Positions 4,742 through 30,299 of a stretch of DNA of 64,000 bases are shown piece after piece. The DNA comes from Polyangia bacterium (lineage in GTDB: Bacteria > Myxococcota_A > Polyangia > Nannocystales > Nannocystaceae). A program made the position numbers and the translations under genes. The notes beneath the pieces were generated by a model. It saw only the letters and a list, made by a program, of their open reading frames with translations, was not told where the DNA came from and ran no database searches. The number at the start of each line of letters is the position of its first letter. Position 1 is the stretch's first letter. Location: positions 47,225 to 111,224 of the forward strand of contig JAUIKS010000008.1 of NCBI GenBank assembly GCA_030430565.1, in the 5' to 3' direction.

Positions 4742-6349
4742 ATGAACGCTCGGTACGTCGCCCCATCGTTGCTCGTCTGCTCGCTCGTCCTGGGTTGTTC
4801 GGCTGGAGATAACGATCGCGAGACCGACGCGTCGGGCTCGAGCAGCGGCCTCAGCGATGATTCGACTGGCTCTGAGGACATGTCGTCAACCGACGCCTCC
4901 GGCGGCGAGACGATGGGCGCGAGCACGAGCTCGGGCTCCAGCACCACGGGCGACACGAACGACCCCACGACCGGCGCGCCGCTCGAGTGCTGGGAGCAGC
5001 CCGGCCCCTGGCACCTCGGGTGGGCGATCCCCGAGCCGGCGCCGATCGACGGGGACCCGGTCGAGGGCGAGTGGGCGCTGCTGCACGAGGACTACGTCAG
5101 CTGCGGGGTCCCGCTGAGCATCTTCAACCTCGGCAAGGCCTTCCTCGGGACCTACGCCGACGGCGAGTCGCTCCCCTGGCGCGACGGCGAGAACGCCAAC
5201 CTCCCCTACAACTGGACCGCGGTGACCTCGGAGGGCGGCACCGAGCTCGCGGCCATGAACTGCCTGACCTGTCACGCGGGCAAGTTCAACGGCGAGCTGA
5301 TCATCGGCCTGGGCCGCCACGACGCCGACTACACCGAGAGCTTCACCTCGCTGCTCTCGCTGTTCCCCGAGCTGCCCGAGTTCACCGACGCGGGCAAGGA
5401 GATCAACAAGTTCATCAGCCGCTACGACGCGCTGGGGCCCTACATCCAGACCGAGACGATCGGGACCAACCCGGCCGACAACGTCGCGGTGATCCTGGCC
5501 TCGCACCGCGACCCGCAGACCCTCGCCTGGTCGGACGAGCAGCTGATCCCCGTCGACCCGCCGGTCGTCCCGGTCGACACGCCGCCGTGGTGGCGCGTCA
5601 AGAAGAAGGGCGGTCACTTCTACAACGGCATGTCACGCGGCGATCACCGCGGCACGATGATGTTCGCCTCGTCGCTGTGCGTGGACACGACGGAGAAAGC
5701 CGAGGAGATGCTCGGCTACTTCAACCACATCCGCGCGTTCCTCGAGAGCATCGAGGCGCCCGCCTACCCGTGGGCGATCAACGAGGAGCTGGCGGCCGAG
5801 GGCGAAGAGATCTTCGAGTGCGCCTGCGCGGGCTGTCACGGGACCTACGACGACGACCCGGAGCTCGAGACCTTCCCGAACCTCCTGATCCCGCTCGAGG
5901 TGATCGGCACCGACTCGCTGCTCGGCGACGCGGCCGCGGACGACCTCGGCACCCTCGTCGAGTGGTTCAACAGCTCGTGGTACGGCGACGTCACCCAGCT
6001 GACGGTCGACGAGCCGTTCATCGGCTACACCGCCCCGCCGCTCGACGGCGTCTGGGCGACCGCGCCGTATCTGCACAACGCGTCGGTTCCGACCCTCGAG
6101 CTGGTCCTCGACTCGACCAAGCGCCCCGACTTCTGGCGGCGCGTCGACTACGACAGCACCAACTACGACCGCGACGCGCTCGGCTGGCCATGGGAGGCGA
6201 CGGGCGGGCAGGACACCGTGCCGCCGAGCGAGCGCCGGCATATCTACGACACGACGAATCTCGGGTATGACAACGGCGGGCACACCTTCGGCGACCACCT
6301 CACCGCCAGCGAGCGCGAGGCGTTGCTCGAGTACCTCAAGACGATCTGA
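4742..6349 (+). CDS. Lipoprotein di-haem c-type cytochrome, cytochrome-c-peroxidase/MauG/RoxA-superfamily-like (paralog 1 of 3)
   Basis: Signal peptide with lipobox LVLGC, then an S/T/G/D-rich linker. Two CxxCH motifs (NCLTCHAG, CAGCHG). C-terminal block PPLDGVWATAPYLHNASVPTLE resembles the CCP/MauG PYFHNGS region. Ends EYLKTI. Confidence 0.7.
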   Translation: MNARYVAPSLLVCSLVLGCSAGDNDRETDASGSSSGLSDDSTGSEDMSSTDASGGETMGASTSSGSSTTGDTNDPTTGAPLECWEQPGPWHLGWAIPEPAPIDGDPVEGEWALLHEDYVSCGVPLSIFNLGKAFLGTYADGESLPWRDGENANLPYNWTAVTSEGGTELAAMNCLTCHAGKFNGELIIGLGRHDADYTESFTSLLSLFPELPEFTDAGKEINKFISRYDALGPYIQTETIGTNPADNVAVILASHRDPQTLAWSDEQLIPVDPPVVPVDTPPWWRVKKKGGHFYNGMSRGDHRGTMMFASSLCVDTTEKAEEMLGYFNHIRAFLESIEAPAYPWAINEELAAEGEEIFECACAGCHGTYDDDPELETFPNLLIPLEVIGTDSLLGDAAADDLGTLVEWFNSSWYGDVTQLTVDEPFIGYTAPPLDGVWATAPYLHNASVPTLELVLDSTKRPDFWRRVDYDSTNYDRDALGWPWEATGGQDTVPPSERRHIYDTTNLGYDNGGHTFGDHLTASEREALLEYLKTI

Positions 6350-6367
6350 TCAGCAGGAGCGCGAACC

Positions 6368-7798
6368 GTGACCAATCATCAGAAGTTCTACATTGACGGA
6401 CAGTGGGTCGACCCCCAGCGCGAGGGGACGCTCGACGTGATCAACCCGGCGACCGAGGAGTCGATCGCGACCATCGCCGCGGGGTCGCCCGACGACGTCG
6501 ACCGCGCGGTGTCGGCGGCCCGCCGCGCGTTCGAGAGCTACTCGCGGACGAGCGCGCGGGAGCGCGGCGAGCTGCTCGCGCGGGTGATCGGCGCCTACGA
6601 GGCGCGCCTCCCTGAGCTCGCGGCCGCGATCTCCAGCGAGATGGGGGCGCCGATGGGCCTGGCGACGAGCCTGCAGGCGCCCTGCGGCCTCGCCCACCTC
6701 GCGAACGCGCGGGCGGCCCTCGAGACCTTCAGCTTTGAGGAGCGCGTCGGCGGTCACCTGATCGCGCGCGAGCCGGTCGGGGTGTGCGGCCTGATCACGC
6801 CGTGGAACTGGCCGATGAACCAGCTCGCGGCGAAGCTCGGCCCGGCGCTGGCGACCGGCTGCACGGTCGTGGTCAAGCCGTCGGAGGTCTCGCCGCTCAG
6901 CGCGTTGATCCTCGCCGAGGTCATGCACGACGCCGGCGTGCCGGCGGGCGTGTTCAACATGATCAACGGCGACGGGCCGACGGTCGGCACCGCGATCGCG
7001 GCGCACCCCGGCGTCGACATGGTCTCGATCACCGGCTCGACGCGCGCCGGCGTGTCGGTCGCCGAGCACGCGGCGAAGACGGTCAAGCGCGTGGCCCAGG
7101 AGCTCGGCGGCAAGTCGCCGAACATCATCCTCGACGACGCCGATCTCGCGGCGGCTGTCGCCCGCGACACCTTCCTCCTGTGCATGAACTCGGGGCAGTC
7201 CTGCAACGCGCCGAGCCGCATGCTGGTCCCGCGCGCGCGCGTGGACGAGGCCGCGGCGATCGCCCGCGCGACCGCGGAGCAGATCAAGGTCGGCGCCCCG
7301 GGCGACGCGGCCACGCAGATCGGCCCCGTCGCCTCGCGCGCGCAGTTCGAGAAGATCCAGGGCCTGATCAAGCAGGGGATCGAGGCGGGCGCGAAGCTCG
7401 AGTGCGGCGGCCTCGGCCGCCCCGAGGGCCTCGCGCGCGGCTTCTACGTCAAGCCCACCGTGTTCTCCCACGTGTCGAACGACATGGTCATCGCGCAGAC
7501 CGAGATCTTCGGCCCGGTGCTGTGCATCATCGGCTACGACGACGAGGACGACGCGGTGCGCATCGCGAACGAGACGGAGTACGGCCTGTGCGCCTACGTC
7601 AGCGCCGGCACGCTCGAGCGCGCGGCCGCGATCGCGCGACGCGTCCGCGCCGGCACCGTGCACCTCAACGGCGCGAGCGTCGATCTCGGCGCGCCCTTCG
7701 GCGGCTACAAGCGCTCGGGGAACGGGCGCGAGTTTGGGCGGTGGGGCTTCGAGGATTACCTCGAGACCAAGTCGATGCTCGGCTACAGCGCGTCGTGA
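6368..7798 (+). CDS. NAD(P)+-dependent aldehyde dehydrogenase
   Basis: Full-length ALDH-family pattern: GLITPWNWP, ELGGKSP, catalytic Cys region MNSGQSCNAPSR, EIFGPVL. GTG start. Confidence 0.9.
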   Translation: MTNHQKFYIDGQWVDPQREGTLDVINPATEESIATIAAGSPDDVDRAVSAARRAFESYSRTSARERGELLARVIGAYEARLPELAAAISSEMGAPMGLATSLQAPCGLAHLANARAALETFSFEERVGGHLIAREPVGVCGLITPWNWPMNQLAAKLGPALATGCTVVVKPSEVSPLSALILAEVMHDAGVPAGVFNMINGDGPTVGTAIAAHPGVDMVSITGSTRAGVSVAEHAAKTVKRVAQELGGKSPNIILDDADLAAAVARDTFLLCMNSGQSCNAPSRMLVPRARVDEAAAIARATAEQIKVGAPGDAATQIGPVASRAQFEKIQGLIKQGIEAGAKLECGGLGRPEGLARGFYVKPTVFSHVSNDMVIAQTEIFGPVLCIIGYDDEDDAVRIANETEYGLCAYVSAGTLERAAAIARRVRAGTVHLNGASVDLGAPFGGYKRSGNGREFGRWGFEDYLETKSMLGYSAS

Positions 7799-7858
7799 CG
7801 CGAGCGCGCCTCGAGTGCGCGCGTGAGCGGGTTGTAGGCGCTGCAGCTTCGCTGTAGA

Positions 7859-8527
7859 TTGTGCAGTCTGGCGACCCAGAACGAACGCAAGCGCAAGCGC
7901 TCCTCGAGCTCCGCGACACGCCGGCGAACGCAGGAGGAGCGCACGGCGCTCTCAGAGCAGCGCATGATCGACGCGGCCGTGAGCCTGCTGGTCGAGCGCG
8001 GCATCGCCGGGATGACGCTGGCGAGCATCGGCGAGCGCTCGGGCTACTCGCGCGGGCTCGTGACGCACCGCTTCGGCTCAAAAGCCGGTCTCTTGGGACA
8101 TGTCCACGACAGCGTCGCGGCCGAGTGGCTGCGGCGCGTGCAGGCCGTAGTCGGCGACGCGACCGGCGTCGTCGCGCTGCAGCGCGTCACGGACGCGCTG
8201 CTCCAGTTCATGGAGGAAGAGCCCGACGACCTGCGCGCGATGTACCTGCTGCGCTACGCGAGCATCGATCCCAGCGCCGAGTACCGCGCGAACGTGTCAC
8301 GGGTGAACCGCGCGCACATCCGCGCGCTCGCGGCCTGGGTCGAGGAGGGTCAGGCCAAGGGCGAGATCGCGGATGACGTCGACGCCGACCTCGCCGCCGA
8401 GCTGTTCGCCAGCGTGATCGACGGCCTGCTCTACCGCTGGCTGGTGACGCCGAGCATCCCGGTTCGGCAGCTGCAGGCGATCCTGCGCGAGAACGTCGGG
8501 CAGGCGCTGAAGAGCGCGCAGGGCTAA
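7859..8527 (+). CDS. TetR/AcrR-family transcriptional regulator
   Basis: N-terminal TetR HTH (RMIDAAVSLLVERGIAGMTLASIGERSGYSRGLVTHRFGSKAGLL). Likely TTG start at 7859; start not certain. Confidence 0.75.
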   Translation: MCSLATQNERKRKRSSSSATRRRTQEERTALSEQRMIDAAVSLLVERGIAGMTLASIGERSGYSRGLVTHRFGSKAGLLGHVHDSVAAEWLRRVQAVVGDATGVVALQRVTDALLQFMEEEPDDLRAMYLLRYASIDPSAEYRANVSRVNRAHIRALAAWVEEGQAKGEIADDVDADLAAELFASVIDGLLYRWLVTPSIPVRQLQAILRENVGQALKSAQG

Positions 8528-8580
8528 TCAACCCGTGACGAGTTTTCGCGCTTGACCACGGCGCTCGCATATGTAATTTG

Positions 8581-8595
8581 CTTGTTGCCAACAAG
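8581..8595. promoter_or_regulatory. Perfect 15-bp palindrome CTTGTTG-C-CAACAAG just upstream of the ACAD gene, preceded by AT-rich TATGTAAT. Putative TetR operator.
   Basis: Read directly in the sequence. The same motif recurs at 24401-24415 and, with one mismatch, at 24530-24544. Confidence 0.5.
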
Positions 8596-8615
8596 TTTAA
8601 AGCAGCGGGCCCCCC

Positions 8616-9782
8616 ATGACGCCGAGAACGATCTTCGATCCTGACCACGAGCTGTTCCGAAGCTCCGTGCGTCGCTTCTTCCAGTCCGAGGTCACGCCGC
8701 ACGTCGACCGCTGGCGCGAGGCGGGCGTCGTCGACCGCGAGGTGTTCGAAAAGGCAGGTGAGCAGGGCTACCTGCTGATGTGGGCGGACGAGCGCTTCGG
8801 CGGCCTGGGGATCACCGACATGCGCTACGAGCAGATCCTGCAAGAGGAGAACTTCCGCAGCGGGGACCCCGGCCTGTGCCTGACGCTGCACTCCCGCGTG
8901 GTCGCGCCCTACATCGGCGACCACGGGACCGAGGAGCAGAAGCAGCGCTGGCTCCCGCCGGCGATCCGCGGCGAGGCGATCCTCGCGGTCGCGATGTCAG
9001 AGCCCTCCGCCGGCTCCGACCTCGGCGCGATGAAGACCCGCGCCGAGCGACGCGGCGACCACTGGGTGCTGCGCGGCTCGAAGACCTACATCTCCAACGG
9101 GCTGCTGGCGGACCTCGTGATCGTCGCGGCGCGCACCCAGAGCGACTCGCGGCACTCGATGGGGCTGTTCGTCGTCGAGGCCGACAGGCCGGGCTTCAAG
9201 CGCGGCCGCAAGCTGCACAAGCTCGGCCTCAACGCCCAGGACACCGCCGAGATGTTCTTCGACGAGCTCGTGTTGCCGGCGGAGAACGTGCTCGGCGATC
9301 CCAGCCAGGGCTTTCGCTACTTGATGCAGGCGCTCGCGGTCGAGCGCCTGCAGATCGCGATCGGGGCGATCGCCCACGCCCAGGTCGCCTTCGACCTCAC
9401 GCTCGACTTCGTCAAGGAGCGCACCGCCTTCGGGCGCCCCGTGGGCACCTTCCAGAGCCCGCGCTTTCGCCTCGCCCGCATGCGCGCCGAGCTCGACGCG
9501 CTGCAGAGCCACATCGACCACTGCGTCATGCTGGCCAACGACGGCGCGCTCTCGGCCGAGGTCGCGAGCGGCGCGAAGATGCTGGCGACCGAGCTGGAGG
9601 GGCGCGTGATCGACGACTGCCTGCAGCTGCACGGCGGCGCCGGCTACATGGAGGAGTACCGGATCAGCCGGATGTACCGCGACGCTCGCGTGACGCGGAT
9701 CTTCGGCGGGACCAACGAGATCATGGCCGAGATCATCGGCCGGAAGCTGGGGCTGGATGGACGGCAATACGCTCGCGGTTGA
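8616..9782 (+). CDS. Acyl-CoA dehydrogenase
   Basis: ACAD family: AMSEPSAGSDLGAMKT, YISNG, C-terminal GGAGYMEEYRISRMYRDARVTRIFGGTNEI. Confidence 0.9.
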   Translation: MTPRTIFDPDHELFRSSVRRFFQSEVTPHVDRWREAGVVDREVFEKAGEQGYLLMWADERFGGLGITDMRYEQILQEENFRSGDPGLCLTLHSRVVAPYIGDHGTEEQKQRWLPPAIRGEAILAVAMSEPSAGSDLGAMKTRAERRGDHWVLRGSKTYISNGLLADLVIVAARTQSDSRHSMGLFVVEADRPGFKRGRKLHKLGLNAQDTAEMFFDELVLPAENVLGDPSQGFRYLMQALAVERLQIAIGAIAHAQVAFDLTLDFVKERTAFGRPVGTFQSPRFRLARMRAELDALQSHIDHCVMLANDGALSAEVASGAKMLATELEGRVIDDCLQLHGGAGYMEEYRISRMYRDARVTRIFGGTNEIMAEIIGRKLGLDGRQYARG

Positions 9783-11010
9783 TCCCGCAGGGGCAGGCGA
9801 GATGACGCAGGAGGCCTCCGAGCGAGTCGCGTTTCGCGCGCGCTGCCGATCCTGGCTCTCGGGCAATGTCCCGGCGACGCCGGACTTCGAGCTGCCGCTC
9901 GGGCCGATCGAGATCTCGACGCCGCAGCAGCTCGAGCACCTGCGCGCGTGGCAGCGCGCGGCCTACCGCGCGGGCCTGGTCGGCTGCGACTACCCGACCG
10001 AGTACGGCGGCGGCGGGCGAGCGGGCTTTCAGCGGATCGCGAACGAGGAGATGCAGGCCGCCGACGCGCCGTTCTTCCCCAACATCGTGGGGCTAGGGAT
10101 GGCGGGGCCGGCGATCTTCCACCACGGCACCGAGGCGCAGAAGCGGCGCTACCTGCCGCCGCTGCTCTCGGGCGCGGAGATCTGGTGCCAGGGCTTCAGC
10201 GAGCCCGGCGCCGGCTCCGACCTGGCGAACGTCCAGACCTTCGCGCGCCGCGTCGGCGATCGCTGGGTGATCAGCGGGCACAAGGTCTGGACCTCGCTCG
10301 CGCAATTCGCCGACTGGATGATCCTGCTGTGCCGCACCGATCGCGGGCACAAGCACCGCGGGCTCTCGTACTTCATCGTCCCGATCGCGTCGGCGCGCGG
10401 CCGCGGCGTCACCGTCCGCCCCCTCGTCAAGATGACTGGAGGGACAGGTTTTAACGAGGTCCTGCTGGACGAGCTCGAGGTCGGCGACGACGCGCGCCTC
10501 GACGAGGTCGGCCGCGGCTGGAGCGTCGCCATGACGACCCTGCTGCACGAGCGCGGCGCCGGCTCGCTCGTGACCCCCACGGCCCGCTCGAGCCGCAGCG
10601 AGGCGCTGAGCCCGGCCCGGCTCATCGCGCTCGCGCGCGCGTGTCGACGCGGCGATCGGGCGGCGGCCGACGACCCCGTGCTCCGCGACAGGCTCGTCCA
10701 GCTGATGATCCGCCAGCGCGCGCTCGAGCAGAGCGAGCGGCGCGCCGCCGTGGCGGCGCTCACCGATCATCCGCAGCGGCTCCCGCTCCAGCGCAAGCTG
10801 CTGCGCTCGGAGCTCCAGCAGGACACGGCGCGGCTGGCGTGCGAGCTCGAGGGTATGGCGAGCACGCTGCGCGGGTCGCAGGCGCCGGCGGGCGGGCGGT
10901 GGCCGCTCGCGTACATGAACTCCTACGGCTTCACGATCGCCGCCGGCACCAGCGAGGTCCAGCGCAACATCCTGGGTGAGCGCGTGCTCGGCCTGGCGAA
11001 GTCGAAGTAA
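9757..11010 (+). CDS. Acyl-CoA dehydrogenase (second of cluster). Start may be the ATG at 9802 rather than 9757.
   Basis: GFSEPGAGSDLANVQT and ACAD-like N- and C-terminal domains. 9757 start overlaps the previous gene by 26 nt. ATG at 9802 is preceded by GGGGCAGG. Confidence 0.8.
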   Translation: MDGNTLAVDPAGAGEMTQEASERVAFRARCRSWLSGNVPATPDFELPLGPIEISTPQQLEHLRAWQRAAYRAGLVGCDYPTEYGGGGRAGFQRIANEEMQAADAPFFPNIVGLGMAGPAIFHHGTEAQKRRYLPPLLSGAEIWCQGFSEPGAGSDLANVQTFARRVGDRWVISGHKVWTSLAQFADWMILLCRTDRGHKHRGLSYFIVPIASARGRGVTVRPLVKMTGGTGFNEVLLDELEVGDDARLDEVGRGWSVAMTTLLHERGAGSLVTPTARSSRSEALSPARLIALARACRRGDRAAADDPVLRDRLVQLMIRQRALEQSERRAAVAALTDHPQRLPLQRKLLRSELQQDTARLACELEGMASTLRGSQAPAGGRWPLAYMNSYGFTIAAGTSEVQRNILGERVLGLAKSK

Positions 11011-11032
11011 CCCGAGCTGACGAGGAGCCCGC

Positions 11033-12217
11033 GTGAACGCGCAACCAGACGACTTCGGTTTTGACGACGAGGCCCAGCTGCTGAAGCAGACCGCGCGCCG
11101 CCTGCTCGCCGAGCGGCTCCCGACCGCGGCGCTGCACCAGCTCGTGGCCGCGAGCTACGACCCGACGCGCGCGCGCGCGTGCGTCTGGGACCAGGCGCTG
11201 TGGCGCGAGCTCGTCGAGCTCGGGTGGACCGCCGTCGCGGTCCCGGCGGAGCTCGGCGGCTTCGGCATGGGGCTCGCCGCGGTCGCGGGGCTCGTCGAGG
11301 AGCTCGGCCGCGCCGCCCTGCCCTCGCCGCTGATCCCCACCCTGTGCGCGACCTACGTGCTGCGCGCGTGCGCCAGCGAGGGCGCCGATATGTTGCTCGC
11401 GCGGATCGCCGAGGGCGCCGCAGTCAGCCTGGCGACCACCGATCAGCACGGCTCGTGGGACGTCGAGGCCTGTGATGTCTCGGTCGTCGAGGGCGAGGGC
11501 GGCGAGGTAATCCTCGACGGCGTCGCGCACTACGTCCAGGACGCCATGAAGGCCGACGTGTTCCTCGTCAAGGCGAGCGCGCGGCGCGGCGGCGTCGGCC
11601 TGTACGTCGTCGAGCGCGACGCGCCCGGCGTCACCGTCGCGCCCGACGCGATCGTCGACCTGACCCGCGATCAGGCGCGCGTCGAGCTCCGCGGCGTCAA
11701 GCTCTCCGCCCGCGCGATCGCGGCCTCGCCCCGCGACGGCGCGCGCGCGCTGAGCTCGGCCGAGGCCGCGCTGCTGGTGCTCGTCACCGCCGACATGGTG
11801 GGCGCCGCCGAGTGGCAGCTGCAGACCACCGCCGAGTACGCGCGAACCCGCGTGCAGTTCGACCGCCCGCTCGGCTTCTTCCAGGCGGTCAAGCACCCGA
11901 TCGTCAACATGATGATCAAGATCGACGAGGCCCGCTCGCTGCTCTACGACGCGGCCTGCTCCTTTGACCATGAACCAGATCACGCCGAGCGACGCGCGCG
12001 CATGGCGAAGTCGGCGGCGAGCGACGCGGCGGCGTTCTGCTCGAGCCGCTCGGTGCAGCTGCACGGCGGCATCGGCTTCACCTGGGAGTGCTTCGTGCAC
12101 CTGTACTTCAAGCGCCAGAAGCACAACGAGGTGCTCTACGGCGACGGCGCGCACCAGCGAGCGAGGCTCGCGGAGCTGATGATCGGCCCGATCAGGGGGA
12201 CGCGCGCGTGCGCGTGA
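11033..12217 (+). CDS. Acyl-CoA dehydrogenase family protein (third of cluster)
   Basis: ACAD C-terminal domain pattern (QFDRPLGFFQAVKHPIVNMMIKIDEARSLL ... QLHGGIGFTWE). Confidence 0.8.
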   Translation: MNAQPDDFGFDDEAQLLKQTARRLLAERLPTAALHQLVAASYDPTRARACVWDQALWRELVELGWTAVAVPAELGGFGMGLAAVAGLVEELGRAALPSPLIPTLCATYVLRACASEGADMLLARIAEGAAVSLATTDQHGSWDVEACDVSVVEGEGGEVILDGVAHYVQDAMKADVFLVKASARRGGVGLYVVERDAPGVTVAPDAIVDLTRDQARVELRGVKLSARAIAASPRDGARALSSAEAALLVLVTADMVGAAEWQLQTTAEYARTRVQFDRPLGFFQAVKHPIVNMMIKIDEARSLLYDAACSFDHEPDHAERRARMAKSAASDAAAFCSSRSVQLHGGIGFTWECFVHLYFKRQKHNEVLYGDGAHQRARLAELMIGPIRGTRACA

Positions 12218-12242: not shown

Positions 12243-13352
12243 GTGGTCCCCGCGATGAAGATCGTCGCCGCCGTCGCGCGCCCGCGCGAGCCCTTCGCGC
12301 TCGCGGAGTGCGAGCTCGCGGAGCCCGGGCCGCGCGAGCTCCGAGTCAAGGTCGAGGCCTGCGGGCTGTGCCGCACCGACCTCTCGGCCAAGGACCACGA
12401 CTACGGGACGCCGCTGCCCGCGGTGCTCGGCCACGAGGGCGTGGGCCGCGTCGAGGCGCTCGGCGACGAGGTCGACGGCTTCGCGATCGGCCAACGCGTG
12501 CTCATGAGCTTCGGCGCGTGCGGACGCTGCGGCGAGTGCCGCCAGCGGATGCCCGCCTACTGCGCGCGGGCCATGGACTTCAACGTGTTCGGGCGCCGAC
12601 CGGACGGGACCGGACCGATCACCCTCGAGGGCCAGGCGATCACCGGGCACTTCTTCGGTCAGTCGTCCTTTGCGAGCCACGCGGTCGTCTCGACCACCAA
12701 CCTCGTGCCGCTCGCCGACGACCTTCCGCCGACCTTGATGTGCGGGCTCGCGTGCGGCGTCCAGACGGGCGTGGGCGCCGCGCTGAACGTGCTGCGCGTC
12801 GAGCCCCGTGATGTCCTCGTGGTCGCCGGCTGCGGCACCGTGGGCCTGTCCGCCGTGATGGGGGCCGTGATCGCCGGCTGCGCCTCGATCATCGCGATCG
12901 ACCGCAGCGACGCGCGGCTCGAGGTCGCGCGCTCGCTCGGGGCCACGCGCGTGATCAACAACCGCGGGCTCGACCGTGACGCGCTCAAGCGCCAGCTCCG
13001 GCAGCTGGGGCCCACGCGCGCCGTCGACAGCACCGGCGCTCCCGAGGTCATCGAGGCCGTGTTCGCGGCGCTGCGACGACGCGGCGTGCTCGCGCTGGCC
13101 GGCTTGAGCCGCGCGCGGACGCGGATCTCGATCGACGCCAACCGGCTGATGTCGAGCGGACGGGTCATCCGCGGGACCGTCGAGGGCGACGCCGACCCGC
13201 GCGTGTTCATCCCGCAGATGATCGCGTGGTACCGACGCGGCCAGCTGCCGCTGGAGGCGCTCGTGACGAGCTATCCCTTCGTGCAGATCAACCGCGCCGC
13301 GGAGGCGCTCGACCGGGGTCGCGCGATCAAGCCGGTGCTGTTCATGGACTGA
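12243..13352 (+). CDS. Zinc-dependent alcohol dehydrogenase (MDR superfamily)
   Basis: GLCRTDL, GHEGVGRVEALG, structural-zinc CGRCGECRQRMPAYC, GxGxxG Rossmann motif VAGCGTVGL. Confidence 0.85.
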   Translation: MVPAMKIVAAVARPREPFALAECELAEPGPRELRVKVEACGLCRTDLSAKDHDYGTPLPAVLGHEGVGRVEALGDEVDGFAIGQRVLMSFGACGRCGECRQRMPAYCARAMDFNVFGRRPDGTGPITLEGQAITGHFFGQSSFASHAVVSTTNLVPLADDLPPTLMCGLACGVQTGVGAALNVLRVEPRDVLVVAGCGTVGLSAVMGAVIAGCASIIAIDRSDARLEVARSLGATRVINNRGLDRDALKRQLRQLGPTRAVDSTGAPEVIEAVFAALRRRGVLALAGLSRARTRISIDANRLMSSGRVIRGTVEGDADPRVFIPQMIAWYRRGQLPLEALVTSYPFVQINRAAEALDRGRAIKPVLFMD

Positions 13353-13370: not shown

Positions 13371-13841
13371 ATGAACCCGACACAGCAGCTCAACGAATTC
13401 TTGGCGCGGAGCGAGGCCCGCGAGGCGGCGCTCTCCGTCGCCGCGCTCCACGAGTTCTTCGACCAGCTCGACGTCATCGAGACCTCGTTCCTCCACGGGG
13501 GCTGGACCGGCGCGGTGCTGCGCACTGGGCACCCCGGCGAGGGGCAGCTCGGCGCGATCCGCTGGGACGGCAAGCGCTTCCACGACGACAACGACGTCGA
13601 CCCGATCATCTCGCGGGACCCAAGCGGCGCGCGCGTGGCCAACCCGGTATTGGGCAAAGCCGCGCTGCGGATGGTCCGCTACCGCGGCGCGGTCACGGCG
13701 ACGATGATCTACGACAAGCACCCGATCTTCGATCACTTCCGCCGAGTCGACGACGACACGGCGCTCGGCGTCATGGACCGCAAGGGGGAGGCGGCGCCGC
13801 TGTTCTTCTGCCTGCGGCGGCTCCCCGGCGACCTTTCCTAG
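13371..13841 (+). CDS. DUF4334/GXWXG-domain protein
   Basis: GGWTG motif and the size and composition typical of GXWXG-DUF4334 proteins. Sits inside the beta-oxidation cluster. Confidence 0.55.
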   Translation: MNPTQQLNEFLARSEAREAALSVAALHEFFDQLDVIETSFLHGGWTGAVLRTGHPGEGQLGAIRWDGKRFHDDNDVDPIISRDPSGARVANPVLGKAALRMVRYRGAVTATMIYDKHPIFDHFRRVDDDTALGVMDRKGEAAPLFFCLRRLPGDLS

Positions 13842-15146: not shown

Positions 15147-15172
15147 GCGACGGACGCGAGGAGGACGAACAG

Positions 15173-17344: not shown

Positions 17345-17387
17345 GGCCTACGGAGGCCTACTGAGACCCCACCGACGACAGGACCCC

Positions 17388-18568
<1,181 letters not shown>

Positions 18569-18572
<4 letters not shown>

Positions 18573-24372: not shown

Positions 24373-24400
24373 GGGGATTCTCGCTTTCGTTGCCGAAAAA

Positions 24401-24415
24401 CTTGTTGGCAACAAG
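24401..24415. promoter_or_regulatory. Palindrome CTTGTTG-G-CAACAAG in the divergent promoter region between the di-haem gene and the DUF2236 gene. A one-mismatch copy sits at 24530-24544 (CTTGTTGGCAACTAG).
   Basis: Read directly in the sequence; reverse complement of the 8581-8595 motif. Confidence 0.5.
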
Positions 24416-24623
24416 CAAATACACAGGAAGCGGACAGCCGGTCAAGTGACGCGCTCGAACACCGTACGATGACCGTTTGGTCGGTTTTGGGGGAAATCGA
24501 GCGTCGCTCCGCGCGGCACGGGCAACTTACTTGTTGGCAACTAGCAAATTTAAACGCATCCTCGACAGCATCAAGCGACATGCCGAGCCCCACCACGAGA
24601 CGAACGCTCCTGTCCCCCAGAAC

Positions 24624-25577
24624 ATGCGCGAAAGCGAGACGCTCGCCGGGTCGCGCGGCGGGAGCACCCGAGCATTGAGACCGACGATGCAGCCTCACGA
24701 TTCGCGCGACCAGCCCCGCGCCGCCGCCTCGTCATGGCCGAAGGTCGACTACCTCAACCCGCCCGGGGCGCGCTCGCTCTACGCCCCCGACTCGATCTCG
24801 TGGCACGTGTTTAAAAACCCGGTCGCGCTGTTCGTCGGCGGGGTCGCGGCCGTGCTGCTCGAGCTCGGCGAGCCGCGTGTGCGCACAGGCGTCTGGGAGC
24901 ACTCGAGCTTCCGCAGCGATCCGATCGCGCGGATGAAGCGAACCGGGCACGTTACCCACGTCTGCGCGTACGCCCCGCGCGAGGTCGCGGAGCAGGTCGT
25001 GGCCCGCGTCGTGAAGATGCACGCGCGCGTGCGCGGGGAGACGCCCGCGGGGACGCGCTACCACGCGAACGATCCCGAGCTCTTGAATTGGGTGCAGGCG
25101 ACGGTCGACTTCGGTTTCATGGAGGCCTACGCGGCCTACTGCCACCCGCTCTCCGACGCCCAGCGCGATCGCTTCTACGCGGAGTCGATCGCCGCAGCCG
25201 CGCTGTTCGGAGCGACCGGCGCGCCAACCACGCTGGACGAGCAGCGCGAGCACTTCGCGGCGATGCGCTCGGCGCTCGAGCCCCACCCGATCGTGCTCGA
25301 GTTCCTCGAGATCATCACGCGAACGCCCGCGGTCCCGCGCCCCCTCGCGGGTCTGCAAGCGATCATGATCCGCGCCGGCGTCGACCTGCTCCCCGATTGG
25401 GTCATCGCGCGCCTCGAGCTCCAGGCGTTCCGAATCACGCGCCGCGAGCGGCTGCTGCTGATGGCGGCGGGCCGGCTGTTCGACCGAATCCCGCTCCCGG
25501 GGAGCCCTCCGTCCCTCGCCTCGAGGCGCCTCGGGCTTCCGAGCCACTACCTCTACTGGGGCCGCGGGCGGCTGTGA
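24624..25577 (+). CDS. DUF2236-family oxygenase (MpaB / Lcp-type haem-dependent oxygenase family). Alternative start 24687.
   Basis: ISWHVFKNPVALFVGGVAAVLLELGEPRV and the downstream pattern are typical of DUF2236 (PF09995). No signal peptide. ORF-track start 24477 was rejected because the protein family begins further in. Confidence 0.65.
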   Translation: MRESETLAGSRGGSTRALRPTMQPHDSRDQPRAAASSWPKVDYLNPPGARSLYAPDSISWHVFKNPVALFVGGVAAVLLELGEPRVRTGVWEHSSFRSDPIARMKRTGHVTHVCAYAPREVAEQVVARVVKMHARVRGETPAGTRYHANDPELLNWVQATVDFGFMEAYAAYCHPLSDAQRDRFYAESIAAAALFGATGAPTTLDEQREHFAAMRSALEPHPIVLEFLEIITRTPAVPRPLAGLQAIMIRAGVDLLPDWVIARLELQAFRITRRERLLLMAAGRLFDRIPLPGSPPSLASRRLGLPSHYLYWGRGRL

Positions 25578-25685: not shown

Positions 25686-27422
25686 TCACGGGAGCAGCCG
25701 GGCGAGGAAGGTGCGCGCGAGCTCGCCATCCGCGACGAGCGCGGGCCCGGCGATCTCCATGGTCCCGTAGTAGTCACCGGCCCAGAGCAGCGCGACCGGG
25801 TCGCTCTCGCCGTCGAAGGCGAGCTGACGGCCGCTCTCAGGCTGCTTGTTGCTGCTGCCGCCGAAGCGCTCGCTCCACAGGTGCGCGCCGGTCGCGAGCT
25901 CATAGCGCGCGAGGCAGGCGTCGTCGGGCCCGCTGATCACGAGCGGGCCGCCGCCGAGGTCGAGGCCTTCGAAGCACGGACCGGAGACGAACACGTGCCC
26001 GTGCTCGGCGTCGACGGCGACGCCGCGGGCGATGTCGTCGACCGCGGGCGCGCCGAAGCGCTGCGCCCAGCTCACGTCGCCGGTCGTCGCGTTCATGTTG
26101 ACCAGGAAGATGTCGTGGTTCACGTCCGATCCGCTGTCGAGCTCGAGCGCCGAGATCGTCGACGTGAAGTCGCCCACCACGACCATCTCGTCGTCACCGT
26201 CATAGGCGAGCCCGCGGACCGATGTCTCCCCGTCGCTGACGAAGGAGTCGCTCCAGCTGAACGCGCCGTCGGCCACGGCGAGGCGCGCGACGAAGCTGTC
26301 ACGCGGCCCGGCGCTGGTGTGCTCGTCGCTGCCCAGCACGATCGAGTTCGCGAAGGTGCCCGCGATCAGGACCGAGCCAGGGCTGCCGTTGATCACCGTG
26401 TTGACGGCCTCGTAGCCCCCCAGCCCGCCGAGCTGCTGCGCCCAGTGAACTTGGAGGCTCGAGTCGAGGCCGGCGATGAACCCGGTCGCCTGCCCGAAGG
26501 CGAAGCCCTCGCTCTCGAGCGGCCCGACGCCGAGGTCGAGCTGCCCCTGGTAGCCGCCGCCGAGGATGAGGCGATCGAAGCTCGCGTCGTAGGCGAGCCC
26601 GGACCCGAACTGCGTGCCGTTCGTCGGGAAGGCGACGACCTTCCCGCACTGCCCGTTGTTCGCGTCGAGCTGCGCGACGAACAGGTCCGGGTCGGTCGAC
26701 TCACCCCCGAGGTCCACCTCGCACAGAAACAACGGGCCAGTGTAGTCGCCGGTGATAAACAGCGAGCCGGACTCGGTGACGATCAGGTCGCGCAGCGTCT
26801 CGTGACCGCCGCCCTCTTTGCCGTCGCCTAGGTCGCTGATCCACTGGAGCGATCCGTCAGGCGCGAACTTCATGACGTGCATCTTGAAGATCGTGGAGGA
26901 CCCCTCGACGTCATGCTGGGCGTGCGAGATCCCGAGCTTGTAGATGCCGCCGAGGTAGATGTTGCCCGCGGCGTCGACCACCAGCCCCTCGTTGAGGATC
27001 TCGCCGTCGCCGAAGCCGACGGACCAGTTCGGCCCGGGCGCGCAGTCGAACTGGTCACACGCCCCCGGCTCGCCCGTGCTGCTGCCGCTGCTCGAGTCGG
27101 GAGCGCCGGTGCTCGTCGAGGCGCCTTCGGTCGCGTCGGCGGTCGTCGCCGCGCTCGTCTCCGCCGCGCCCGTCGAGCCGCTGAGCTCCCCGCTCGAGGA
27201 CACGGTCGTCATCGCGTCGGTCTGCGCGTTTGGATCGCTGCACGCTCCGTCGACGCAGCGCTGCCCCGCGTCGCACTCGCTGTCCGCGGTGCACGGCAGG
27301 CCCTGCGTCCCCGGCTGCTTCCAACACCCAGCGGGCCCGGGGAGCGCGAGCGCGAGCGCGAGCCAGCCCGCGAGCGAGCGAGCGCGCGAGCGCGGCCGCT
27401 GGTCGTCTCGATCAGACACCAC
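25686..27422 (-). CDS. Secreted/lipoprotein beta-propeller repeat protein (SBBP-like), Cys-rich N-terminal module
   Basis: Signal peptide ending PGPAGC. A C-rich segment (CTADSECDAGQRCVDGACSD), an S/T/G linker, then repeated G..Y.G/D..G strands typical of myxobacterial beta-propeller proteins. Confidence 0.55.
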   Translation of the reverse strand: MVSDRDDQRPRSRARSLAGWLALALALPGPAGCWKQPGTQGLPCTADSECDAGQRCVDGACSDPNAQTDAMTTVSSSGELSGSTGAAETSAATTADATEGASTSTGAPDSSSGSSTGEPGACDQFDCAPGPNWSVGFGDGEILNEGLVVDAAGNIYLGGIYKLGISHAQHDVEGSSTIFKMHVMKFAPDGSLQWISDLGDGKEGGGHETLRDLIVTESGSLFITGDYTGPLFLCEVDLGGESTDPDLFVAQLDANNGQCGKVVAFPTNGTQFGSGLAYDASFDRLILGGGYQGQLDLGVGPLESEGFAFGQATGFIAGLDSSLQVHWAQQLGGLGGYEAVNTVINGSPGSVLIAGTFANSIVLGSDEHTSAGPRDSFVARLAVADGAFSWSDSFVSDGETSVRGLAYDGDDEMVVVGDFTSTISALELDSGSDVNHDIFLVNMNATTGDVSWAQRFGAPAVDDIARGVAVDAEHGHVFVSGPCFEGLDLGGGPLVISGPDDACLARYELATGAHLWSERFGGSSNKQPESGRQLAFDGESDPVALLWAGDYYGTMEIAGPALVADGELARTFLARLLP

Positions 27423-27485
27423 CCCCCACCCTACTGCACTCCGCGAGGATCGAAACCGGCCGCGCGGCTCGCTCCTAGCGGGTGC

Positions 27486-28385
27486 TTAGAACTCGCCGCG
27501 CAGCAGGAGGCCCGCGAAGCCGGGCGCGAGCGCGGGCGCGAGCGCGAGGCCGTCCGCGCGCTGCCGCGACTTGCCGACGATGATCAGCGCCGCGCCTGTG
27601 GCGAGCAACGCCCCGCCGAGGACGCCGCCGGCGATCGCCAGGGAGTTGCCCCGCTCTCCGCGGTTGATCGCGGCCGTCCGCTCGGCGCCGTTGCTCGCCC
27701 CTAGGAACTCGTCGACCGCGTTGTCGCCGATCACGAGCCCGCCGGCCATGAGGCCGAAGCCGACGAGCGAGGCGCCCGCGACCACGGCTCCGCCGATCAC
27801 CAAGCCCGCGCCCGGCTTGCGCGGGCTCGTCGGCTCAGGCGGCGACGACGGCTCGACCGGCGTGGCCGGCTCGACCGGCGCTGGCGCTGGATCCTCCTCG
27901 ACCTCCGAGACCTCGGCGAGCAGCTTGTCGACGACCGCGAGCAGCTCGTCCGCAGCGACGCGCTCCTCCTCGCTGAACGCCTCGCGCTCGCGGTACTGCA
28001 GGAGCAGCGCGCGCGCTTGGCCGAGATGCTTGGGGTCGTCGTTGATCTCGTAGGCCTTGATGTGCGCGCCGGCGAGGTTGAATTGCAGGGTCGCCGAGAC
28101 GACCGCGCGGAACTGCGTATCCTCGATCCGGATCGCCTCCTCGTACGCGCGCGTGAAGCTCTCGATCGCGCCCTCGTAGTCCGCGGTCTCGAACTGCGCC
28201 TGGCCGCGCTCAAACAGCGCCTTCGCCCGGGCCTCGGCGTTGTCGCGCGCGGCCGAGCTCGCCGCGCTCGCGCCGGCGCGACTCGAGCTGAGCGCGACGC
28301 CGAGGAGCGCGACCCACAGCGCCAGACCGCCGCGTCGGCGAGACCGGCGCGCGTTCCTCGTGGGCGCAGAGAGAGGACGCTGCAT
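27486..28385 (-). CDS. Secreted TPR-like protein with a Gly/Ala-rich C-terminal hydrophobic segment
   Basis: Start MQRPLSAPTRNARRSRRRGGLALWVALLGVALSSS (signal peptide). TPR-like helices (ADYEGAIESFTRAYEEA). C-terminal GLVIGGAVVAGASLVGFGLMAGGLVIG resembles a membrane anchor. 28427 is an alternative start. Confidence 0.5.
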   Translation of the reverse strand: MQRPLSAPTRNARRSRRRGGLALWVALLGVALSSSRAGASAASSAARDNAEARAKALFERGQAQFETADYEGAIESFTRAYEEAIRIEDTQFRAVVSATLQFNLAGAHIKAYEINDDPKHLGQARALLLQYREREAFSEEERVAADELLAVVDKLLAEVSEVEEDPAPAPVEPATPVEPSSPPEPTSPRKPGAGLVIGGAVVAGASLVGFGLMAGGLVIGDNAVDEFLGASNGAERTAAINRGERGNSLAIAGGVLGGALLATGAALIIVGKSRQRADGLALAPALAPGFAGLLLRGEF

Positions 28386-28688
28386 CCGCGACACTATACA
28401 AGCAAGCCGCGCAATAACGACGTCCACGTTCCCGCGCCGCGCCGCGCCTTGCTACTGTCGTGGGCCGCAGCTCGCGCGCGAGCGGACGCGCCCTGTCTGT
28501 TCATGGAGGAACGCATGACGCCTAGACACCGACCCCTCTGGCCCGCCCTCGCAGCCCGTGGCGAACGTCCACGCGCCGGCACACGTGATCCCTCCGCCGC
28601 CGACTTCGTTGGCGAAACGAGCAGTACGCCCGAAACAACTTCGTTTCACCGCCTCGCCCGCGACGAGAACTCCGGCGCGAGCCGACAC

Positions 28689-30299
28689 GTGGACGTTCGC
28701 CGCGGGCTGCTCGCCCTGATCGCCGCCAGCGCTGCGATCGCGCTCCCGGCCTGCGGCGACGCAGTCGACACCGAGACGACCGCCGATCCCAGCGACGCCG
28801 GCACGACCGGCGACGCGCCGGGGGACTCCGCCGACGGCGCGACCACGAGCGCGGGCGCGAGCGCGACCGGGGCGACGACGACCAGCGCGAGCGAGACGAG
28901 TGAGACCAGCGGGACCAGCGAGGGCATGGAGGACACCTTCGGCCCGGGCCCGTGGGACCACGGCTATCCGATCCCGCACGAGGATCAGGTCCCCGGCGAT
29001 CCCGAGGCGGGCTACGAGGCGCTGCTGACCCGCGGCTACGTCAGCTGTGGTGTCCCCTACGCCATGTTCCAGCTGGCGAAGGGCCTGCTCGGTCCCTACG
29101 CGGACGGGCCCGCGCTGCCGGGCCGCGAGGGCAAAAACGCGCTCGTCCCCTTCAACTGGACGGTCCACAGCGAGACCAAGAGCGGGGCCGAGGTCGCCGC
29201 GCTCAACTGCCTCACCTGCCACGCGGGCTACGTCAACGGCGAGCTGATGGTCGGGGCCGGGCGCGCCGACGGTGACTTCACGGCCGACATGGGCGCGCTC
29301 GTCGGCGCGATCCCGATCCCCGATCTCCCGATCCTCGGGCTCAGCGAGCTCGCGGCGATGCAGAGCCGCTACGAGGCGCTCGGGCCCTACACCCAGATGC
29401 ACACCATCGGCTCCAACCCCGCCGACATGATCGCGGTGGTGCTCGCGGCCCACCGCGACCCCGTGACGCTCAATTGGAGCGACGAGCCGCTCGAGCCGAT
29501 CGCGGCCGAGCCGATCCCCATCGACACGCCGCCGTGGTGGCGCTCGAGCAAGAAGAGCAGCCTGTTCCACAACGGCATGGCCCGCGGCGACAAGCGCGGG
29601 ACGATGATGTTCGCCTCGTCGCTGTGCACCGACTCGGTCGCCGAGGCCGAGCTGATCATGTCGTACTTCAACGACGTCAACGCGTACATCCAGTCCATCG
29701 AGCCGCCGCCCTACCCCTTCACGATCGACGCCGCGCTCGCCGACGAGGGCGAGCTGCTGTTCATCGACAGCTGCGCCGGCTGCCACGGCACCTACGCCGA
29801 CGATCCCGCGGACGACTGGTACCCCAACCTGATCATCCCGACCGAGATCATCGGCACCGATCCGTCGCTCGCGGACTACGGCGTCGACGACGTCGCGCAC
29901 ATGGTCGACTGGTACAACAGCTCGTTCTACGGCGCGTACACGCGGCTCGAGCCGGGCGACCCGGTCGCCGGCTACACGGCGCCGCCGCTCGACGGCGTGT
30001 GGGCGACGGCGCCCTTCTTTCACAACGGCTCCGTGCCGACAATCGAGGGCGTGCTCAACAGCGCGGCCCGCCCGCCCTACTGGAAGCGCGTCGACTACGA
30101 CAGCAGCAACCTCGACCAAGACGCGCTCGGCTGGCCCTACGTCGAGACCCCCTACGGTCAGCAGGACGCGCCCGAGGACGAGAAGATCCACGTCTTCGAC
30201 ACGACCCTGCACGGCCACAAGAACGCAGGCCACCCGTTCGGAGACGCGCTCTCGCCGGGCGAGCGCCGGGCGGTCATCGAGTATCTCAAGACGCTGTAG
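28689..30299 (+). CDS. Lipoprotein di-haem c-type cytochrome, CCP/MauG/RoxA-superfamily-like (paralog 3; closest to paralog 1)
   Basis: GTG start gives (M)DVRRGLLALIAASAAIALPACGD (lipobox LPAC), then an S/T/G/D linker. NCLTCHAG and CAGCHGTY; PPLDGVWATAPFFHNGSVPTIEGVL; VIEYLKTL. The ORF-track 5' extension back to 28017 overlaps the opposite-strand TPR gene and was rejected. ATG at 28503 is an alternative start but would place the signal peptide about 60 aa inside the protein. Confidence 0.65.
   Translation: MDVRRGLLALIAASAAIALPACGDAVDTETTADPSDAGTTGDAPGDSADGATTSAGASATGATTTSASETSETSGTSEGMEDTFGPGPWDHGYPIPHEDQVPGDPEAGYEALLTRGYVSCGVPYAMFQLAKGLLGPYADGPALPGREGKNALVPFNWTVHSETKSGAEVAALNCLTCHAGYVNGELMVGAGRADGDFTADMGALVGAIPIPDLPILGLSELAAMQSRYEALGPYTQMHTIGSNPADMIAVVLAAHRDPVTLNWSDEPLEPIAAEPIPIDTPPWWRSSKKSSLFHNGMARGDKRGTMMFASSLCTDSVAEAELIMSYFNDVNAYIQSIEPPPYPFTIDAALADEGELLFIDSCAGCHGTYADDPADDWYPNLIIPTEIIGTDPSLADYGVDDVAHMVDWYNSSFYGAYTRLEPGDPVAGYTAPPLDGVWATAPFFHNGSVPTIEGVLNSAARPPYWKRVDYDSSNLDQDALGWPYVETPYGQQDAPEDEKIHVFDTTLHGHKNAGHPFGDALSPGERRAVIEYLKTL

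Follow-up and report, generated by a model that had tools for sequence, protein, structure and literature searches.

Which enzymes are encoded by three di-haem protein genes lying within 26 kb of a contig from a Polyangia bacterium of the family Nannocystaceae, and what links them to the β-oxidation genes in their midst? The stretch analysed, referred to as the window, comprises 64,000 nucleotides (GenBank assembly GCA_030430565.1, contig JAUIKS010000008.1, positions 47,225 to 111,224), and the proteins were designated P1 (535 amino acids, aa), P2 (749 aa), and P3 (536 aa). A preliminary description of this DNA had presented them as three paralogues of one architecture, probably haem enzymes of the peroxidase or oxygenase type. 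In this study, they were found not to be equivalent paralogues: P2 is identified as an orthologue of RoxB, and P1 and P3 are placed in a distinct, shorter family, called mini-Rox here. To our knowledge, RoxA, RoxB, and Lcp are the only proven rubber oxygenases.

The three di-haem proteins and the assignment of P2

The open reading frames (ORFs) of P1, P2, and P3 (Table 1) were confirmed to encode, as first described, a putative lipoprotein signal, a tether rich in S, T, G, and D, and two CxxCH motifs. The lipobox Cys closing the signal peptide was located by motif reading, and all three are predicted lipoproteins. The tether is 63–80 aa long and 86–95% S, T, G, D, E, A, and P, with 13–25 acidic and 0–1 basic residues. 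Each protein has exactly two CxxCH motifs, spaced 188–204 aa apart, namely C174-H178 (CLTCH) and C362-H366 (CAGCH) in P1, CLTCH and CAGCH with the first Cys at 174 and 362 in P3, and C294HGCH298 and C498ASCH502 in P2. The C-terminal block PPL(D/F)GVWATAP(Y/F)(L/F)HN(A/G)SVP, running on to EYLKT(I/L), is common to the three, as quoted in the preliminary description. P2 was counted from an ATG, and its ORF is extendable to a TTG at 24414; the start of P3 is a GTG within a longer open frame. The public gene call of P1 (P0001, 489 aa) begins 46 codons downstream, at 4880 instead of 4742, and drops the predicted lipoprotein signal.

P1 and P3 are 52% identical over 514 residues (E = 0). P2 is 26% identical to P1 (E = 2e-26), colinear across both haem motifs and the C-terminal block, and likewise 26% identical to P3. 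In a tblastn search of the window, no paralogue beyond these three was found. PF21419 (RoxA-like_Cyt-c, a 39-residue motif) was detected in each at 76–77 bits, and matches to PF00034 and PF13442 were confined to the 20–30 residues around the second CxxCH and were not domain-length. The sixth ligand of the haem at this motif aligns with RoxA H641, about 150 residues downstream, unlike that of class I cytochromes c. With RoxA, RoxB, and RoxC, and not electron-transfer cytochromes, as the best full-length relatives, the Rox-type affinity proposed earlier was upheld, and the view that these proteins are enzymes and not electron carriers fits the fold and the conserved ligands.

P2 scored 993.8 bits against the NCBIfam equivalog model for RoxB (NF050034, cut-off 900 bits), with positions 1–652 of the 652 in the model aligned to residues 107–749, and lower against those for RoxC (NF051462, 600 bits; cut-off 900 bits) and RoxA (NF050033, 427 bits; cut-off 1000 bits). 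Along the entire mature enzyme, P2 shares 63% identity with RoxB from Steroidobacter cummioxidans 35Y, for which biochemical data exist, and 61% with RoxB/LatA from Rhizobacter (Piscinibacter) gummiphilus; its best sequence match in the PDB was RoxA (4B2N, E 9e-107). The signatures of RoxB are CH(A/G)CH, CASCH, the MauG motif PYxHNGSVP, F309, V294, and H627, the distal His of the C-terminal haem (PMC6311187, PMC10837239). When these were compared in an alignment of 16 RoxBs, P2 displayed all of them in columns that were invariant or nearly so: F400 and V401 occupy the positions of RoxA F301 and W302 (V401 being the equivalent of RoxB V294), F416 that of RoxB F309 and RoxA F317, the MauG motif reads P598YFH601NGSVP, and H728 is the counterpart of RoxB H627. 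The resemblance of the CASCH motif to that of RoxA had been correctly noticed. We assign P2 as a RoxB orthologue, a predicted lipoprotein variant of a known enzyme family. RoxB cleaves cis-1,4-polyisoprene internally in an O2-dependent reaction, and the products are oligo-isoprenoids of C20 and larger with aldehyde and methyl-ketone ends (PMC10837239, PMC6311187).

RoxB of strain 35Y has a plain Sec signal and is secreted as a soluble protein of about 70 kDa, whereas P2 has lipobox Cys23 followed by an acidic tether of 80 aa, with a mature mass of 78 kDa. Since homology to mature 35Y RoxB starts at about residue 104 of P2, the "extra" N-terminal part of P2 consists of this lipobox and tether; the Cys-rich region behind the tether, which had been taken for an addition of about 200 aa, is the ordinary N-terminal region of RoxA and RoxB, and it is P1 and P3 that are without it. 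The ten closest RoxB homologues (66–82% identical) also have the lipobox and tether, although one of them escaped the regular expression used, and those with names belong to Myxococcales or Paraliomyxa; the expression matched 28 of the 120 RoxBs listed. We predict that a lipid anchor and the acidic tether hold P2 at the cell surface, a departure that, judged from the alignment, does not touch the catalytic domain.

The compact family of P1 and P3

P1 and P3 differ from P2 in that neither is a member of any Rox family as modelled in NCBIfam. Their best scores there were with the RoxC model (168 bits for P1 and 165 bits for P3); the RoxB model gave 140.1 and 143.3 bits and the RoxA model 87 and 110 bits, all against the cut-offs given above. 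Model NF040606, "di-heme cytochrome c peroxidase", gave 123–124 bits for these two (full range 99–124 bits) against a cut-off of 150 bits, the best stretch being the C-terminal 100 or so positions of the model. Seven further mini-Rox members likewise stayed below the cut-off of every model for Rox or cytochrome c peroxidase (CCP). NF040606 was considered as the family's own model and rejected, as all nine members were below its cut-off and matched it C-terminally only. PF03150 (CCP_MauG) had no match at E ≤ 1 in P1, P2, or P3, and the models for MbnH and MauG-like proteins (TIGR04039, TIGR03981) gave negligible scores of 10–17 bits, far below their cut-offs. These results did not bear out a single architecture for the three proteins, P2 being a full-length RoxB and P1 and P3 a shorter family beneath all Rox and CCP cut-offs, nor an assignment to the CCP_MauG or MXAN_0977 families.

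Profile-profile comparison of mini-Rox with RoxB gave a probability of 100 and an E value of 2.4e-45 over 368 columns. Because residues 143–535 of P1 pair with residues 184–681 of RoxB in this comparison, mini-Rox is without the first 150 or so mature residues of RoxB and several inserts. P1 and P3 match RoxB in their core fold, at the two haem sites, and in the distal Phe, but they are only about 26% identical to it, about 200 aa shorter (55–56 kDa), and without RoxB residues 34–183, approximately, and several inserts.

Database searches returned more than 100 homologues at 50–79% identity, nearly all from Nannocystaceae (Enhygromyxa, Nannocystis, Pseudenhygromyxa, and Paraliomyxa) and labelled just "hypothetical", "c-type cytochrome", or "mono/diheme cytochrome c family protein". 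Among 1.84 billion representatives, 262 clusters matched at E ≤ 1e-30, most of them of 450–530 aa. A scan of species genomes found mini-Rox in Myxococcota, Gammaproteobacteria, Alphaproteobacteria, Bacteroidota (Chitinophagaceae, Saprospiraceae, and others), and Phycisphaerae, the aligned part always being residues 96–535 of P1, approximately. By motif reading of the alignment, the lipobox Cys column is kept in 31 of the 32 Nannocystaceae homologues of P1, and about half of the wider family has a loose lipobox-like pattern. P1 and P3 are classed as an uncharacterised and unnamed compact variant (about 450–530 aa) of the Rox kind. The earlier remark that these haem proteins had not been characterised holds for P1 and P3 but not for RoxB, for which biochemical data and a curated NCBI model exist, and Rox lipoproteins (RoxC) have been discussed (PMC10837239).

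A recent duplication giving rise to P1 and P3, as had been suggested, was rejected: the two are 52% identical, have closer relatives in other genera (77–79% identity for P1, 60–64% for P3), and belong to different clades. In a neighbour-joining tree, P1 grouped with the members from the clusters of Pseudenhygromyxa and a Nannocystaceae metagenome-assembled genome (MAG), and P3 with the member from the Paraliomyxa cluster. Given this placement of the Paraliomyxa member, both mini-Rox clades have been recruited to rox islands.

The AlphaFold2 model of P1 had a mean predicted local distance difference test score (pLDDT) of 72, with the domain mostly at 75–90 and the tether below 50. Upon Foldseek comparison with the PDB, RoxA was the sole significant match (E 1.7e-16), and the fold was twice as close to RoxA as to any peroxidase; by PF21419 and the global match to 4B2N, P1 is predicted to adopt a RoxA-like fold. 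Residue equivalences were taken from a HMMER alignment to 4B2N and a profile alignment. H178 and H366 of P1, the proximal His of the two CxxCH motifs, correspond to RoxA H195 and H394; H514, the second axial ligand of the C-terminal haem, to H641; H445, in the MauG motif, to H517; F293 and F308, in the distal pocket, to F301 and F317; and Y294 (His in P3), in the distal region, to W302. Both CxxCH motifs, H445, H514, W284, and W438 were invariant in 32 Nannocystaceae sequences and conserved in at least 94% of 90 diverse representatives, so that conservation of the haem motifs in orthologues, on which the preliminary description depended, was confirmed. The F301-equivalent column was F or Y in 96% of these 90 representatives. 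The mini-Rox core is read from these alignments as that of RoxA and RoxB, with a one-His N-terminal haem under a hydrophobic distal pocket containing two Phe, and the C-terminal bis-His haem and the MauG-motif His also appear to be kept. P1 and P3 are about 20–26% identical to RoxA; they lack its N-terminal region, have CLTCH in place of CSxCH as the first motif, and have Tyr (P1) or His (P3) at W302, and the F317 equivalent is present.

P1 and P3 could instead be peroxidases, either CCP-like or acting on hydroperoxides of lipids or polyisoprene, which would protect surface Rox enzymes or process auto-oxidised polymer. H2O2 destroys the active haem of RoxA (PMC6797691), so a protective partner would be useful to the cell; the nearest non-Rox NCBIfam model is named for a di-heme cytochrome C peroxidase (120–140 bits), and the wide spread of mini-Rox outside rox clusters suits a general function. 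This explanation is nevertheless rather unlikely in view of the missing PF03150 match, the C-terminal, sub-cut-off match to NF040606, and the greater closeness of the fold to RoxA. In RoxA, F301 and F317 are positioned 4.1 and 3.7 Å away from the O2 bound to the haem, stabilise it, and are both required for activity, and the distal pocket is without the acid-base residues of CCP, other peroxidases, and MauG (PMC6797691); at the corresponding positions P1 has two Phe and not an acid-base pair. An adjacent aldehyde dehydrogenase gene (see below) is also better explained by an aldehyde-forming enzyme.

It is very improbable that P1 and P3 modify proteins or peptides in the manner of MauG or MbnH. 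They have the MauG motif and match the MbnH and MauG-like models and structure 6E1C weakly; however, RoxA and RoxB themselves carry this motif (PMC6311187), the model scores are far under the cut-offs, and no gene for a substrate resembling mauA or mbnA/P was found nearby. Compared with CCP, MauG, MbnH, and BthA in general, about 200 of the 450 or so residues superpose, the residues aligned to the distal pocket are hydrophobic in P1 and P3, and genes for partner proteins are absent from the vicinity.

The operator and the gene island

P1 and roxB belong to a set of genes, referred to as the island, that were annotated by Pfam and NCBIfam (Table 1). Comparison loci retrieved from other genomes are numbered with the prefix L; L084 is from Paraliomyxa, L086 from Pseudenhygromyxa, and L090 from the Nannocystaceae MAG.

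A palindrome with the pattern CTTGYTRGCARCAAG was found at four sites in the 64 kb, all in promoter regions of the island, which amounts to 8 strand matches against 0.22 expected. An identical 21-mer stands at two of these sites, with 0 such repeats expected by chance. No further operator sites were found in the window, and none upstream of P3. In Paraliomyxa, the motif is located upstream of roxB, the TetR gene together with mini-Rox, fadD, and the acyl-CoA dehydrogenase (ACAD) operon, and in Pseudenhygromyxa upstream of roxA and mpaB; operator sites were thus seen across three genera (the window, L082, L084, and L086). The stand-alone paralogue loci and Steroidobacter were without the motif. 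Based on the shared operator, P1, roxB, mpaB, and the β-oxidation genes are taken to form one regulon, into which P1 is firmly tied, and the TetR-family protein of the island is probably the regulator that binds the operator. Scans for consensus promoters and terminators in the P1-aldehyde dehydrogenase-TetR region and between roxB and mpaB gave nothing, and such scans are uninformative in a myxobacterial genome of 70% GC.

Table 1. Di-haem protein genes, island genes, and operator sites in the 64-kb window
Feature	Position	Strand	Remarks
Operator-like palindrome CTTGCTAGCAGCAAG	4706-4720		22 bp upstream of P1 start
P1, 535-aa predicted di-haem lipoprotein (mini-Rox)	4742-6349	+	Lipobox C19; tether 20-85
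Aldehyde dehydrogenase	6368-7798	+	PF00171, 509 bits; 18 bp after P1; no signal peptide
TetR-family regulator	7859-8527	+	PF00440 and TetR_C_6; presumed palindrome binder
Operator ACTTGTTGGCAACAAGCAAAT (21-mer)	8576-8596		Upstream of first acyl-CoA dehydrogenase gene
Acyl-CoA dehydrogenases (three)	8616-9782, 9757-11010, 11033-12217	+	Same triplet in L084, L086, and L090
Zn-dependent alcohol dehydrogenase	12243-13352	+	Kept in L084 and L086
GXWXG/DUF4334 protein	13371-13841	+	Inside operon in three clusters; MAG has a 64-aa DUF4334 fragment only
Thiolase	13935-15146	+	
FadB-type enoyl-CoA hydratase/3-hydroxyacyl-CoA dehydrogenase	15158-17344	+	Start codon approximate
Fourth acyl-CoA dehydrogenase	17280-18572	+	Paired with kinase-like gene; pair kept in L084 and L086
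APH-family phosphotransferase	18311-19621	+	True start probably about 18560; Pfam match begins at residue 118
Short-chain dehydrogenase/reductase (SDR)	19674-20510	+	
FadD5-like long-chain acyl-CoA ligase	20518-22086	-	Immediately downstream of roxB
P2, RoxB orthologue (assigned), 749 aa	22123-24372	-	Lipobox C23; acidic tether 24-103
Operator, exact ACTTGTTGGCAACAAGCAAAT 21-mer	24400-24420		28 bp upstream of roxB start
Operator, 1 mismatch to ACTTGTTGGCAACAAGCAAAT	24529-24549		Upstream of MpaB-like gene
MpaB/Lcp-superfamily (DUF2236) oxygenase	24687-25577	+	296 aa; no signal peptide; PF09995, 169 bits
β-Propeller (SBBP-like) protein	25686-27422	-	Weak matches only; not seen in other clusters; island link unproven
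TPR protein	27486-28427	-	Weak match; island link unproven
P3, second mini-Rox, 536-aa predicted lipoprotein	28689-30299	+	Lipobox C22; motifs as in P1; no operator upstream

Three further clusters in Nannocystaceae had related gene contents. In Paraliomyxa miuraensis, the genes for FadD, TetR, mini-Rox, three ACADs, alcohol dehydrogenase (ADH), DUF4334, thiolase, FadB, SDR, RoxB, and MpaB run in one direction, and those for aldehyde dehydrogenase (ALDH), APH, and ACAD are close to the cluster. In Pseudenhygromyxa sp. WMMC2535, the order is Rox, three ACADs, ADH, DUF4334, FadD, SDR, mini-Rox, ALDH, and TetR, then thiolase, ACAD, APH, and MpaB; the large Rox here is RoxA (1261 bits against the cut-off of 1000 bits). 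The MAG has FadD, mini-Rox, ALDH, TetR, and three ACADs, then thiolase and FadB, and no large Rox was found in the retrieved stretch of its contig. From these orders, mini-Rox is present in all four clusters, beside RoxA or RoxB alike; its adjacency to ALDH recurs in Pseudenhygromyxa and the MAG, and a TetR gene is found in all three of the further clusters.

The distance between P3 and roxB is 4.3 kb, and the mini-Rox in the Paraliomyxa cluster comes from the clade of P3; by this proximity and clade membership, a link of P3 to the island pathway is plausible but weak. The genes for the β-propeller and TPR proteins (25686-28427), which lie between the MpaB-like gene and P3, are without equivalents in the related clusters.

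The MpaB-like gene could be read from 24477 in its longest ORF (366 aa); the start given in Table 1 was taken from the database copy P0390. Its protein was modelled at a pLDDT of 91.7, and the top PDB matches of the model were LcpK30 and t-anethole oxygenase. At the sequence level, no match to any solved structure was found with the single sequence or a 30-sequence profile, and because of this the protein is not called Lcp; a true Lcp was considered and not adopted, the resemblance being at the fold level only. It also differs from Lcp in having no secretion signal and in being about 100 aa shorter, and its fold is unrelated to that of Rox. Lcp, MpaB', and t-anethole oxygenase, the haem b oxygenases of PF09995, all of which cleave alkenes, thus relate to this neighbour and not to P1–P3. 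The protein has homologues, 56–64% identical to it, in Steroidobacter, Povalibacter, and Sphingomonas kyeonggiensis, and the gene order in Steroidobacter flavus is RoxB, TonB receptor, LuxR, MpaB, and FadD. A PF09995 gene without a signal was seen beside or near roxA or roxB in three Nannocystaceae genomes and S. flavus (24687-25577 (+) in the window, L082 12265-13197, L086 19735-20595, and L089 10001-10918); the genome paper of S. cummioxidans makes no mention of such a gene.

The FadD5-like ligase scored 719 bits against NF005857, just under the cut-off of 733 bits, and 498 bits against NF004837 (cut-off 476 bits). Orthologues of the APH-family phosphotransferase are 335–357 aa long. The genes for the fourth ACAD and this kinase-like protein were always adjoining, at 17280-18572 and about 18560-19621 (+) in the window, 2314-4604 in L084, and 17508-19708 in L086. 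By analogy, the pair resembles the split LvaC/LvaA or the fused mammalian ACAD10/11, enzymes that phosphorylate 4-hydroxyacyl-CoAs and eliminate the phosphate, with entry into β-oxidation (PMC11342911, PMC10802472).

Proposed pathway and competing explanations

The homology, the fold, the conserved haem ligands, the synteny across four genomes, and the operator common to the island promoters are the basis on which we infer catalytic activities, substrates, and surface location. On balance, we consider it somewhat probable that the island specifies a TetR-controlled catabolism of polyisoprenoids with three types of haem oxygenase, in which P1 and P3 would be tethered Rox-like dioxygenases. The most likely function of these two would be O2-dependent cleavage of C=C bonds of isoprenoids or oligo-isoprenoids at the cell surface. 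In the proposed route, polyisoprene would be cut by P2 at the cell surface to oligo-isoprenoids with aldehyde and methyl-ketone ends, and the tethered mini-Rox would cleave these, or another isoprenoid or unsaturated lipid, to keto-aldehydes small enough for import. The aldehydes could then be oxidised by the aldehyde dehydrogenase encoded next to P1, the acids converted to CoA esters by the FadD-like ligase, and the esters passed through β-oxidation by the four ACADs, FadB, and thiolase. The SDR and the pair of APH kinase and ACAD may handle the 4-oxo/4-hydroxy end, in parallel with LvaD/LvaA/LvaC and ACAD10/11, since the methyl ketone left by Rox cleavage would be expected to become such a terminus. 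Remaining internal double bonds might be cut by the cytoplasmic oxygenase of MpaB/Lcp fold. The natural substrate in marine myxobacteria need not be rubber.

A broader proposal, which we put forward only tentatively, is that mini-Rox forms a fourth active class of Rox-type haem dioxygenases, lipid-anchored at the surface and cleaving C=C bonds of isoprenoids or other alkenes in Myxococcota, Proteobacteria, Bacteroidota, and Planctomycetota. Within the marine Nannocystaceae, for which rubber degradation has never been demonstrated, its gene would belong to a single TetR regulon together with those for an extracellular RoxA or RoxB and the intracellular Lcp-fold oxygenase, giving a three-oxygenase turnover of polyisoprenoids.

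Several observations weigh against the proposed role of P1 and P3. RoxC proteins are lipoproteins with intact haem motifs, and yet two of them did not cleave rubber (PMC10837239); their inactivity is therefore a warning against inferring activity from homology. The F317-equivalent column is F, L, or Y in Nannocystaceae and unconserved family-wide, the alignment of the loop there being uncertain. The loop over haem 1 (residues 294–307) was modelled at a pLDDT below 50, and the near-invariant His302 within it could act as a sixth ligand. Lipoprotein status and location on the outer surface were read from motifs. An operator is missing in front of P3, whose nearest relatives occur in unrelated gene contexts. 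The mini-Rox family is also far wider than the rox island, extending to Bacteroidota, Alpha- and Gammaproteobacteria, and Phycisphaerae. At 80 other mini-Rox loci from a scan of a genome collection, neither Rox nor the operator was found, and ALDH was present at 3, ACAD at 1, and FadD at 2. A family-wide association with ALDH or β-oxidation genes was rejected on these counts. Because the family is wide, occurs without Rox, and rarely has such neighbours, its ancestral role need not be rubber catabolism.

These loci bear on another explanation, namely that P1 and P3 are catalytically degenerate enzymes or use a substrate that is not an isoprenoid, as may also apply to RoxC, and that the place of P1 reflects shared regulation or history. 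RoxC, with its motifs intact and yet inactive on rubber (PMC10837239), would be a precedent. RoxC proteins resemble P1 and P3 in being predicted to be lipoproteins, in their strong acidity, and in having the MauG motif besides two CxxCH motifs. Their masses are 75–87 kDa, Ala and Phe take the places of F317 and W302, respectively, and the haem motif is CFQCH (PMC10837239); P1 and P3 differ in mass (55–56 kDa), in having Phe at the F317 position, and in scoring far under the 900-bit cut-off of the RoxC model.

The neighbours of mini-Rox are variable, which would also suit a different substrate. At about 12 gamma- and alphaproteobacterial loci, a gene for a CrtC/AttH-like double lipocalin (PF07143 and PF17186) is located directly upstream, often overlapping, in place of β-oxidation genes, and no other conserved neighbour was found at these loci. 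CrtC has a carotenoid hydratase fold. Such pairs were seen in Thiocapsa marina, Granulosicoccus, Marivita, Methylococcaceae, and others (L018, L019, L021, L023-L026, L028, L030, L032, and L048). The CrtC-like partner is itself of an isoprenoid-related fold (PF07143), and as a second, independent pointer it hints at hydrophobic or isoprenoid substrates. Together with the invariance of all cofactor ligands, and with the retention of P1-like genes in the island in four genomes despite rearrangement and with the island operator, this makes a degenerate or non-isoprenoid enzyme unlikely. Conserved neighbours in Chitinophagaceae were discarded as functional evidence, since on reading the representative sequences they were judged to be at least partly housekeeping synteny (Lhr-like helicase, DNA ligase, and GMP synthase).

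The company of RoxA or RoxB raises the further question of whether P1 and P3 are tethered cytochromes that deliver an electron to reduce or re-activate these enzymes, in which the active haem binds O2 only in the ferrous state. RoxB was isolated in the Fe3+/Fe3+ state and RoxA in its oxidised form must first be reduced (PMC10837239; PMC6797691), P1-like genes accompany either enzyme in the clusters, and the two partners are alike in their predicted lipoprotein character and in their tethers. A simple carrier, however, would need no RoxA-like fold of about 450 aa, no MauG motif, and no conserved hydrophobic distal pocket; RoxA and RoxB are active in vitro without a partner (PMC10837239), and most mini-Rox members occur in contexts without a nearby Rox. 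We regard a redox partner as improbable and retain the tethered dioxygenase as the preferred reading of P1 and P3.

In Steroidobacter cummioxidans 35Y, a route from polymer to β-oxidation was pieced together in the genome paper by comparative genomics and not from one cluster. The island would be the first tightly clustered, regulator-defined route of this kind in a Gram-negative lineage, and it suggests a recycling of natural polyisoprenoids by marine myxobacteria. If active, mini-Rox would widen the enzyme repertoire for cleavage of polyisoprene and isoprenoids, and its smaller size might ease engineering.

Three other genes of the window were noted. A Ser/Thr protein kinase fused to an AAA_16 ATPase (2-3472, -; 1157 aa seen) runs past the window start, and its PADLOC matches, to kinase domains (PD-T4-6), are probably generic. 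A radical SAM protein fused to DUF2344 (1002 aa; 57127-60135, -) appears unrelated to the haem proteins. Directly downstream of P3 is the gene for a 727-aa AAA_16/AAA_22 ATPase (30408-32591, -) with a marginal PADLOC match (mad8, 21 bits). The GC content of the window is about 70% throughout except for a stretch of about 55% at 30–32 kb, in which this ATPase gene lies, and the gene was probably acquired horizontally.

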